Shown here piece by piece: positions 419 to 1,570 of a DNA stretch of 16,014 nt. Source of the DNA: a virus (Duplodnaviria; Heunggongvirae; Uroviricota; Caudoviricetes); IMG/VR virus record IMGVR_UViG_2660238499_000006, positions 1 through 16,014 of that record; one strand, written 5' to 3'. Made by a program: the position numbers and the translations under genes. The notes beneath the pieces were generated by a model, which saw nothing but the letters and a program-made list of their open reading frames with translations, had not been told where the DNA came from and searched no databases. The number at the start of each line of letters is the position of its first letter. Within the stretch, counting starts at the first letter, position 1.

Positions 419-1570
419 TTAATTACTGACAGTTTCAGGTTTCGGGAAACTGAACAGTAAATCACGGTAGTATTCGTATTGTTTCTGGCGCAACTCGATT
501 TCACGCGGGAGGCCTTCGGTGATGGAGTTTGTCAGGGTGTCGAATTTATCGAGAAGAGATACGATTCGTTTTTGTTCGTCCAGTGATGGAAGTGGAATTA
601 TTAATTTAGCCAAGTCAATTTTATTTACAGCAGGTACTCCACCTTCTTTTTTTAAACTCAATAAAATCCTATTTCTTGATTGAAGAGTATAGAAAAGGAA
701 TTTGTTAATTAGGATTTCATTATTTAATGATTTTATTTTATAGCACAAGGGACCTAACCAGAATGGCGTTTTTTGATATCCTACAAAACCAATACCACCC
801 TGCCCCCGAGAAGGTGTAGTTACAGTATCCCCATCGCAGTTGCTCATCGTTGTGTATCCCGATCTACTTGTTCCGGCGTTGATATAATCAAATGTTGCTG
901 CTTTATCAAGTATCTCAGATGGTTTTTGCCCTGTGTTTATCTCGGTGATTTCCCCCAAAGTCTTCCACTTAACCTCACCCTCTTTAAAACTTAACAACTG
1001 GTCGCGATAGTAGTTGTACTGTTTTTTACGCATGTTAAGCTCAGCGGTAAGCTCAGCGGTAAGCTCAGCGGTAAGTGCAGTAAACTTATCCAGAATCCGA
1101 ACGATTTCAGACTGGATGGCAAGGGATTTTTCCGGATTATCCGGGCAGGGGATTGGGAATTCAAGTTTTTCAATTACTGACTTTGAGAGACGCGGAATAC
1201 TGGCACGGCGTACTTGTCCTGAAATTTTATTCTTTTGCGTCAACAAAAAATGAAACAAAAACCTGTCATTTATGTATTCTGGTGTGATTGCGAAATGAAC
1301 ATCGTCGGCAGCCCAAAATTCATTTTCGCTATAACCAATTTCACCGGCTGCACCCGCACAGATAATGAACGAAGATTGAGCTGCGACATTATACTCATGA
1401 TAGTAACCGAGTGGTGTCATGCTGTTTTGGTAAACCGCATATTTACCTCTGGTTTCTAACTGAGATTTTACGAGCCGCCTTCCGCGCTGAAAATTTACAA
1501 CATCTCCCAATGATTTCCACTCAACCTCAACCCCATCCAGCAATTTTTCCAGATAACTCAACTCGCTCAT
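419..1570 (-). CDS. hsdS: Type I R-M specificity subunit (HsdS), two target-recognition domains separated by a central (TAEL)n repeat
   Basis: 383-aa minus ORF whose ATG overlaps the hsdM stop (ATGA at 1567-1570), indicating translational coupling. Central region ...[32 protein letters not shown]... and C-terminal ...[14 protein letters not shown] are the conserved HsdS repeats flanking variable TRDs. Confidence 0.9.
1037..1072 (-). repeat. Three perfect tandem copies of a 12-bp unit (plus strand aagctcagcggt; minus strand accgctgagctt = T-A-E-L) inside hsdS, followed by a degenerate fourth unit
   Basis: Directly visible at 1037-1048, 1049-1060 and 1061-1072. In-frame, encoding [13 protein letters not shown] between the two TRDs. 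Confidence 0.95.

Follow-up and report, generated by a model that had tools for sequence, protein, structure and literature searches.

Type IC restriction–modification systems are characterised by a tandem repeat of four residues (TAEL, LEAT, SEAL or TSEL) within the central region of the specificity subunit, HsdS (PMC10030836). The closest described systems, EcoR124I and EcoR124II (R124 and R124/3), are a natural pair that differs only in carrying two or three TAEL units. EcoR124I, with two units, recognises GAA N6 RTCG and has 7 bp between its target adenines, whereas EcoR124II, with three units, recognises GAA N7 RTCG and has 8 bp between them (PMC3874165; PMC12707154, Table 1). EcoDXXI and EcoPrrI likewise combine three units with a target-adenine separation of 8 bp (PMC3874165; PMC12707154), and a separation of 7 or 8 bp is given as the type IC rule in a 2025 EcoSal review (PMC12707154, Table 1). 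Hybrid enzymes with altered repeat number shift their specificity as predicted, and the change in EcoR124 has been ascribed to unequal crossing-over at the repeat (PMC3874165; PMC12707154). Three repeats look optimal according to the review by Loenen et al. (PMC3874165). In Neisseria gonorrhoeae, strains that differ in how many LEAT repeats NgoAV contains give N6 or N7 motifs by SMRT sequencing (PMC6789123).

The window, the whole 16,014-nt stretch of DNA analysed here, contains a single outstanding tandem array, which Tandem Repeats Finder placed at positions 1036–1075 with a period of 12, 3.3 copies, 100% matches, no indels and a score of 80. The repeated unit, TAAGCTCAGCGG on the plus strand in the same analysis, is read as ACC GCT GAG CTT on the minus strand. 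Its three perfect copies (1072–1061, 1060–1049 and 1048–1037) are in frame in the open reading frame 419..1570(−), in the minus-strand context TTT ACT GCA CTT (ACC GCT GAG CTT)x3 AAC ATG. Under a uniform base model, about 6e-11 perfect 3 × 12 arrays are expected by chance per 16 kb. An earlier, sequence-only reading of this DNA had reported a perfect threefold 12-bp repeat encoding (TAEL)3 in hsdS and had cited the EcoR124I/EcoR124II paradigm; its coordinates and frame proved exact on repeat detection and translation, and the paradigm is as it stated (PMC3874165; PMC12707154, Table 1). Both spurious open reading frames that it had attributed to out-of-frame translation of the repeat were found wholly within hsdS: 1014..1253(+), of 79 aa with SSAVSSAV, and 991..1173(−), of 60 aa with LPLSLPLSL. 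The degenerate fourth copy that it described does exist as a 9-nt partial unit, T-A-L without the Glu codon, but this is a family-wide feature that is not special to the window allele, with a counterpart (FTAL, FTEL or FSEL) in nearly all homologues, EcoR124 HsdS included. The coordinates of these and other features are collected in Table 1.

Table 1. Location, strand and basis of assignment of features in the 16,014-nt window.
Feature	Coordinates	Strand	Basis
IS66-family insertion sequence, terminal 59 nt (junction GTAAGCG...); interrupts hsdR; window ends inside it	1..59	−	Plasmid matches
hsdR 5′ fragment, ~79 codons; 59/60 is the limit of homology to the 1038-aa intact hsdR of sister loci	60..297	−	Homology
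hsdS, type IC specificity subunit, 383 aa	419..1570	−	ORF; two Methylase_S matches; EcoR124 HsdS alignment
C-terminal conserved region, predicted helix, residues 330–372, coiled-coil partner; LDKF and RQKQY 17 aa apart, as in the three-unit central region	455..583	−	AlphaFold2 and motif spacing
TRD2, ~residues 200–325, not EcoR124-like	596..973	−	Alignment and AlphaFold2 model
Central conserved region, uninterrupted predicted helix, residues 146–192, holds the TAEL array	995..1135	−	AlphaFold2 and EcoR124 alignment
Three perfect 12-bp units ACCGCTGAGCTT, (TAEL)3, HsdS residues 167–178	1037..1072	−	Sequence and Tandem Repeats Finder
Degenerate 9-nt partial unit ACT GCA CTT (T-A-L, residues 164–166), directly upstream of the array	1073..1081	−	Conserved across family
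TRD1, ~residues 20–140, not EcoR124-like	1151..1513	−	Alignment and AlphaFold2 model
hsdM, 520-aa ORF (annotated as 518 aa in relatives), shares 4 nt with hsdS, near-identical to EcoR124 M protein	1567..3129	−	Homology
C-terminal ~200 aa of a Tn3-family transposase (tnpA 3′ fragment)	15287–15961	−	Homology

The proteins encoded around the array are closely related to those of EcoR124. The window HsdM aligned with the EcoR124 M protein (7bst_D) with a score of 1160 bits over 520/520 aa, and the window HsdS matched EcoR124 HsdS (PDB 7bst_A) at 8e-82 in phmmer and was matched twice by Pfam Methylase_S. The HsdR of a sister locus, the zero-mismatch twin L007, aligned with EcoR124 HsdR (2w00_A) with 2282 bits over 1038/1038 aa. 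The genes run hsdM–hsdS–hsdR on the minus strand, with hsdM at 3129–1567, hsdS at 1570–419 and the hsdR start at 297, and relatives show the same order. In its central conserved region, HsdS carries (TAEL)3, a tetra-amino-acid repeat of the kind that characterises type IC systems. Judged by HsdM and HsdS homology, the sister-locus HsdR and gene order, the window system is a genuine type IC system of the EcoR124 family.

In the phmmer alignment, near-identity between the window and EcoR124 HsdS proteins was confined to residues 1–18, ~137–219 and ~330–383, with divergent TRDs between them. For the sequence-only reading, TRDs unrelated to the type IC family would have counted against its proposal. 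Neither TRD is EcoR124's, but each is found among other type IC HsdS proteins, and this objection does not arise. EcoR124 HsdS, whose TRDs thus differ from those of the window, is the sole characterised type IC S subunit in the PDB. The window HsdS is itself a mosaic, in which TRD1 and the central region are identical to those of L003 (CP081792), and TRD2 and the C-terminus are identical to those of L001 and L002 (CP148442 and AP026504). Recombination in the conserved regions therefore happens, and TRD mosaicism of this kind represents the other classical diversification route of type I systems. The window TRD combination was not found at ≥80% coverage in PLSDB, INPHARED or complete E. coli genomes.

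Compared with EcoR124, the window locus has the same 12-bp TAEL unit at the same central-region position, and its HsdM, the HsdR of its sister loci and the conserved regions of its HsdS are near-identical. It differs from EcoR124 in both TRDs, so that its half-sites are not GAA and RTCG, in being carried by a P1-like phage-plasmid instead of plasmid R124, and in having an hsdR interrupted by an insertion sequence. EcoDXXI and EcoPrrI share with the window HsdS the type IC family and three central units, in a comparison by family and unit count. The EcoPrrI locus has prrC embedded in it, whereas the 121-nt gap between hsdS and hsdR in the window holds no such gene. NgoAV resembles the window system in that the number of tetra-amino-acid repeats in its central region varies naturally (PMC6789123), but differs in its LEAT repeat, its N. 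gonorrhoeae host and the additional dependence of its specificity on a frameshift-truncated HsdS. A literature search on type I systems of P1-like phage-plasmids returned nothing relevant.

A search of 5.8 billion protein clusters returned two 379-aa proteins, P0001 and P0002, which are 99% identical to the window HsdS and correspond to the window protein minus one TAEL, that is, (TAEL)2. Outside the repeat, P0001 and the window HsdS show 0 differences. Four loci from four different samples (L006, L007, L008 and L009) match window positions 60–10857, 60–11570, 60–4061 and 60–2246, respectively, without a mismatch and with one 12-nt gap that corresponds exactly to a repeat unit. All four share the P1-like backbone of the window and all carry two units. 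The twin plasmid is represented, for instance, by contig CACSTC020000051.1 of assembly GCA_902708655.2. Nine contigs in at least three backgrounds encode P0001, with 100% identity to the window in L006–L009, 99.4% in L005, a more diverged P1-like plasmid with 54 mismatches, and 96.5% in L004.

The exact three-unit window protein was absent from ~15 billion catalogued proteins, and the three-unit state of this TRD pair is represented by one assembly. Since the two-unit form occurs in several backgrounds, parsimony indicates that it is most likely ancestral and that the window allele gained a unit recently. The 11.5 kb compared contain one repeat change and no substitution, which suggests a much higher per-base mutation rate for the array than for point substitution, although this is a single event that selection may have helped. 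The sequence-only reading had called the array a specificity-length switch and a likely site of variation. A two-unit allele with the same TRDs, on otherwise identical DNA, bears out the variation on an evolutionary scale, and it is at that scale that a switch is shown.

L004 is a 47-kb Logan contig (ERR7450710) in which the two-unit hsdS allele lies in a different island, with 96.5% DNA identity over hsdMS. Its neighbours there include AbiEii/DUF6088, a DUF4942 gene, a reverse-transcriptase gene with an STM3845-family partner, and P4-like Psu, Ogr/Delta and primase genes. Given this location, the type IC cassette evidently moves between defence islands and phage-plasmids.

Changes by one unit recur in other type IC hsdS genes. 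Five further TRD backgrounds among the fetched sequences contain allele pairs that differ by one unit only: three units against two in L003 and P0055, P0014 and P0026, and P0032 and P0039, and two units against one in P0065/P0067 and P0090, and P0087 and P0097. The last two pairs include natural alleles with a single TAEL, namely P0090 (390 aa) and P0097 (386 aa, on 12 contigs). The type IC cassettes of P1-like phage-plasmids and E. coli chromosomes thus appear to have diversified their specificity repeatedly through changes in repeat number.

The frequency of long arrays was assessed with pure-array DNA probes run under strict E-value cut-offs. A 40-nt probe detected at least three perfect units in 448 records, from 435 of 5426 complete E. 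coli genomes, and a 52-nt probe detected at least four in 42 of the 5426. A broader 60-nt probe, comprising three units with 12-nt flanks, found the repeat region in 1074 records from 1014 of these genomes, with 859 of the 1074 E. coli records ≥99% identical to the probe; some genomes carry several type IC loci, in up to 6 places per genome. As a discriminator for three or more units at ≥80% coverage the 60-nt probe was rejected, because overlapping half-matches of two-unit targets were joined to 100%. The protein-cluster list was likewise rejected as a frequency estimate: it is ranked by similarity to the window TRD pair and consists of representatives only, and its count of 0 sequences with three perfect TAEL units among the best 120 cluster representatives conflicts with the 435 genomes of the DNA census. 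It was used solely to find pairs differing by plus or minus one unit. By the DNA census, three units is a common state and unremarkable in itself, and hsdM, hsdS and hsdR were full-length in 5/5 sampled three-unit loci.

An AlphaFold2 model of the window HsdS (mean pLDDT 85.9) consists of two globular domains and two long helices. Residues 146–192 are modelled as one continuous helix that includes the TAEL array, with residues 330–372 as its partner. With three units, the central and C-terminal conserved regions have the same LDKF-to-R(K/Q)KQY spacing of 17 aa, an equality that agrees with the optimum described in the review by Loenen et al. (PMC3874165). The comparison of these motifs spans HsdS residues 160–185 and 340–365, and a two-unit central region is 4 aa shorter than its C-terminal counterpart, which makes for an asymmetric coiled coil. 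Arrays of four units reportedly relax specificity.

In the proposed mechanism, the central helix and the C-terminal conserved helix would form an antiparallel coiled coil that keeps the two TRDs apart, with each four-residue unit adding roughly one base-pair step of separation and twist. The third unit would have been gained from a two-unit allele with the same TRDs, by replication slippage or by unequal crossing-over between the direct repeats. The resulting M2S methyltransferase would share its half-sites with the twin and have a non-specific spacer longer by 1 bp, its methylated adenines lying 8 rather than 7 bp apart. By extrapolation from three characterised enzymes and NgoAV, the third unit should have this effect on the spacer. 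The sequence-only reading had predicted an N7-type spacer; the family rule supports a separation of 8 versus 7 bp, one longer than that of the two-unit twin, but a nominal N7 cannot be asserted, because the N count depends on the half-sites and these differ from those of EcoR124, as do the TRDs. The array is very probably the length-setting TAEL element of a type IC HsdS on a P1-like phage-plasmid, in which a recent one-unit duplication is predicted to have lengthened the spacer by 1 bp.

The hsdR gene of the window is broken at about codon 80. The junction reads ...AATGACAGCG on one side and GTAAGCGTCGTC... on the other, and the sequence beyond 59/60 continues as GTAAGCGTCGTCTGAG... to a stop at 7–9. 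The 59-nt end matches 337 plasmids of many genera perfectly and, in two unrelated plasmids, forms the outer end of an IS66-family element, which shows that hsdR is insertionally interrupted. A Tn21/Tn3 or Tn402 inverted repeat was also considered for this end of the window and was ruled out by the same outer-end location. The intact hsdR of a functional R2M2S restriction endonuclease is absent from the window. With hsdR interrupted by the insertion sequence, the locus probably only methylates, modifying DNA without restricting it, unless another type IC HsdR is supplied in trans. The repeat change could then be selectively neutral rather than adaptive. A P1-like IncY plasmid, L010 (NZ_CP020936.1), combines a two-unit hsdS with a truncated hsdR, annotated as a 253-aa "type I restriction endonuclease" CDS, and on this evidence hsdR loss may be recurrent in P1-like phage-plasmids.

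The remainder of the window carries the backbone genes hot, humD, phd-doc, a DUF968 gene, lpa, pacA/pacB, ant, c1, cre and ref of a P1/P7-like phage-plasmid. The sequence-only reading had recognised the type IC hsdS and its repeat but missed both this replicon and the insertion in hsdR. Classical P1 carries the type III EcoP1I res/mod genes and is not known to carry a type I cassette. A type IC hsdMSR cassette occurs at the same position in many P1-like phage-plasmids. At the right end, homology to transposon-free P1-like plasmids stops at 15254, either inside ref or just beyond it, and a Tn3-family-like inverted repeat, GGGGTTTGAGGG...ACGCTAAG, starts at 15255, followed by the tnpA fragment. 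The TnAs3 transposase of L010 was considered as the source of this end and rejected: the alignment covers only the last ~60 nt of the window, which match IS26 ends, and the tnpA fragment comes from another element of the Tn3 family. The window begins and ends within repeated elements, consistent with a contig from a draft assembly.

Longer arrays were found in a different setting. Seven loci (L013–L019) were inspected among the 42 genomes with at least four perfect units, namely those of E. coli 33-6, NT1F10, G4/9, NC101, plasmid C of S30, 2018-02-2CC and FDAARGOS_1251. All have 5 or 8 TAEL units, and 7/7 are damaged by IS1, IS2, IS3 or ISEc45 in hsdM or hsdS. Intact loci numbered 0/7 with 5 or 8 units against 14/16 with 2–3 units (Fisher p ~1.5e-4), in a set of 23 loci that is partly clonal, sampled non-randomly and non-independent; with such sampling, the association is a lead rather than a result. 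It suggests either that an array beyond three units persists solely in systems whose enzyme has already been lost, or that such arrays bring about its inactivation. Relaxed selection could account for the pattern, as could counter-selection of arrays that are too long.

Array length and restriction activity might be coupled in either of two ways, depending on whether restriction loss or length change came first. With restriction lost, spacer length would be free to change without the exposure of unmodified chromosomal sites that would otherwise follow. In the other version, a change of length, or the promiscuity of an over-long helix, would lead to self-restriction and so to selection for inactivating insertions. 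In the window lineage a one-unit gain co-occurs with the IS66-family insertion in hsdR, a single case that fits either direction. Such a coupling is doubtful on this evidence. If true, either version would make the TAEL array a built-in evolutionary fuse that links specificity change to transient loss of restriction.

Several other origins of the third unit, or other meanings of it, deserve consideration beside a local duplication. Homologous recombination or gene conversion with another three-unit type IC hsdS in the same cell would have the same functional outcome. The ingredients for it are at hand, in that the central-region DNA is nearly identical among alleles (the 859 of 1074 E. coli records noted above), donors with at least three units are common (435/5426 genomes), several type IC loci may coexist in one genome (up to 6 places) and the window hsdS is itself a mosaic. 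With zero flanking mismatches over 11.5 kb, the conversion tract could have included only sequence that donor and recipient share exactly, so that local duplication is the simplest account and conversion is rather unlikely. An error of assembly or sequencing is scarcely credible. The three-unit form of this TRD pair was indeed seen nowhere else in ~15 billion proteins, and the repeated mobile elements at both ends of the window suggest a short-read draft contig, but any modern read would cross 36–40 nt, the array is perfect and in frame, and complete genomes commonly hold genuine arrays of three or more units.

The extra unit might also be a neutral or degenerative change in a decaying system, giving no useful new specificity and perhaps reducing or relaxing methyltransferase activity. 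The interruption of hsdR in the same lineage and the confinement of 5- and 8-unit arrays to IS-damaged loci (0/7 intact, against 14/16 for 2–3 units) would fit such decay. Three units is nevertheless the state of the functional enzymes EcoR124II, EcoDXXI and EcoPrrI (PMC3874165; PMC12707154) and of 5/5 sampled loci that are fully intact. The window hsdM and hsdS are themselves intact and identical to those of the twins except for the repeat, and the third unit restores the equal 17-aa spacing of both coiled-coil helices, all of which makes decay quite improbable. A true high-frequency, phase-variable switch, with two- and three-unit cells coexisting in every population, could draw on the plus-or-minus-one-unit pairs in at least six TRD backgrounds and on the one repeat change that accompanies zero substitutions in 11.5 kb. 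Three 12-bp units are far below typical contingency tracts, however, and a high switching rate is not expected of them; all four independent samples of the identical backbone carry two units, and the literature ascribes the EcoR124 change to unequal crossing-over, not to programmed phase variation. Phase variation of this kind is highly improbable, and a local duplication is preferred.

Knowledge of the mechanism goes back to the late 1980s (1989) and natural variation has already been seen in EcoR124I/II and NgoAV, so the conceptual gain is small. What is new, as far as the sequence comparisons reach, is an especially clean pair of natural alleles on a P1-like phage-plasmid, together with the recurrence of one-unit changes across TRD backgrounds. 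The window allele and its twin amount to a natural replicate of the classic EcoR124I/II experiment, with one 12-bp unit and no other difference over 11.5 kb. Methylomes of the pair would test whether one TAEL equals one spacer base pair in a new TRD background. For annotation, the pair implies that motif prediction for type IC HsdS needs the repeat number as well as the TRDs.

The phage-plasmid backbone has further P1-like sites. An exact 34-bp loxP site lies at 12734–12767, upstream of cre, and three tandem TGATCA (Dam) sites follow ~70 nt downstream of it, at 12839–12860. TGATCA is over-represented in the window as a whole, with 15 observed occurrences against 5.7 expected. A 4 + 2 cluster of the same motif lies inside pacA, at 6970–7128, and presumably corresponds to the P1 pac site.
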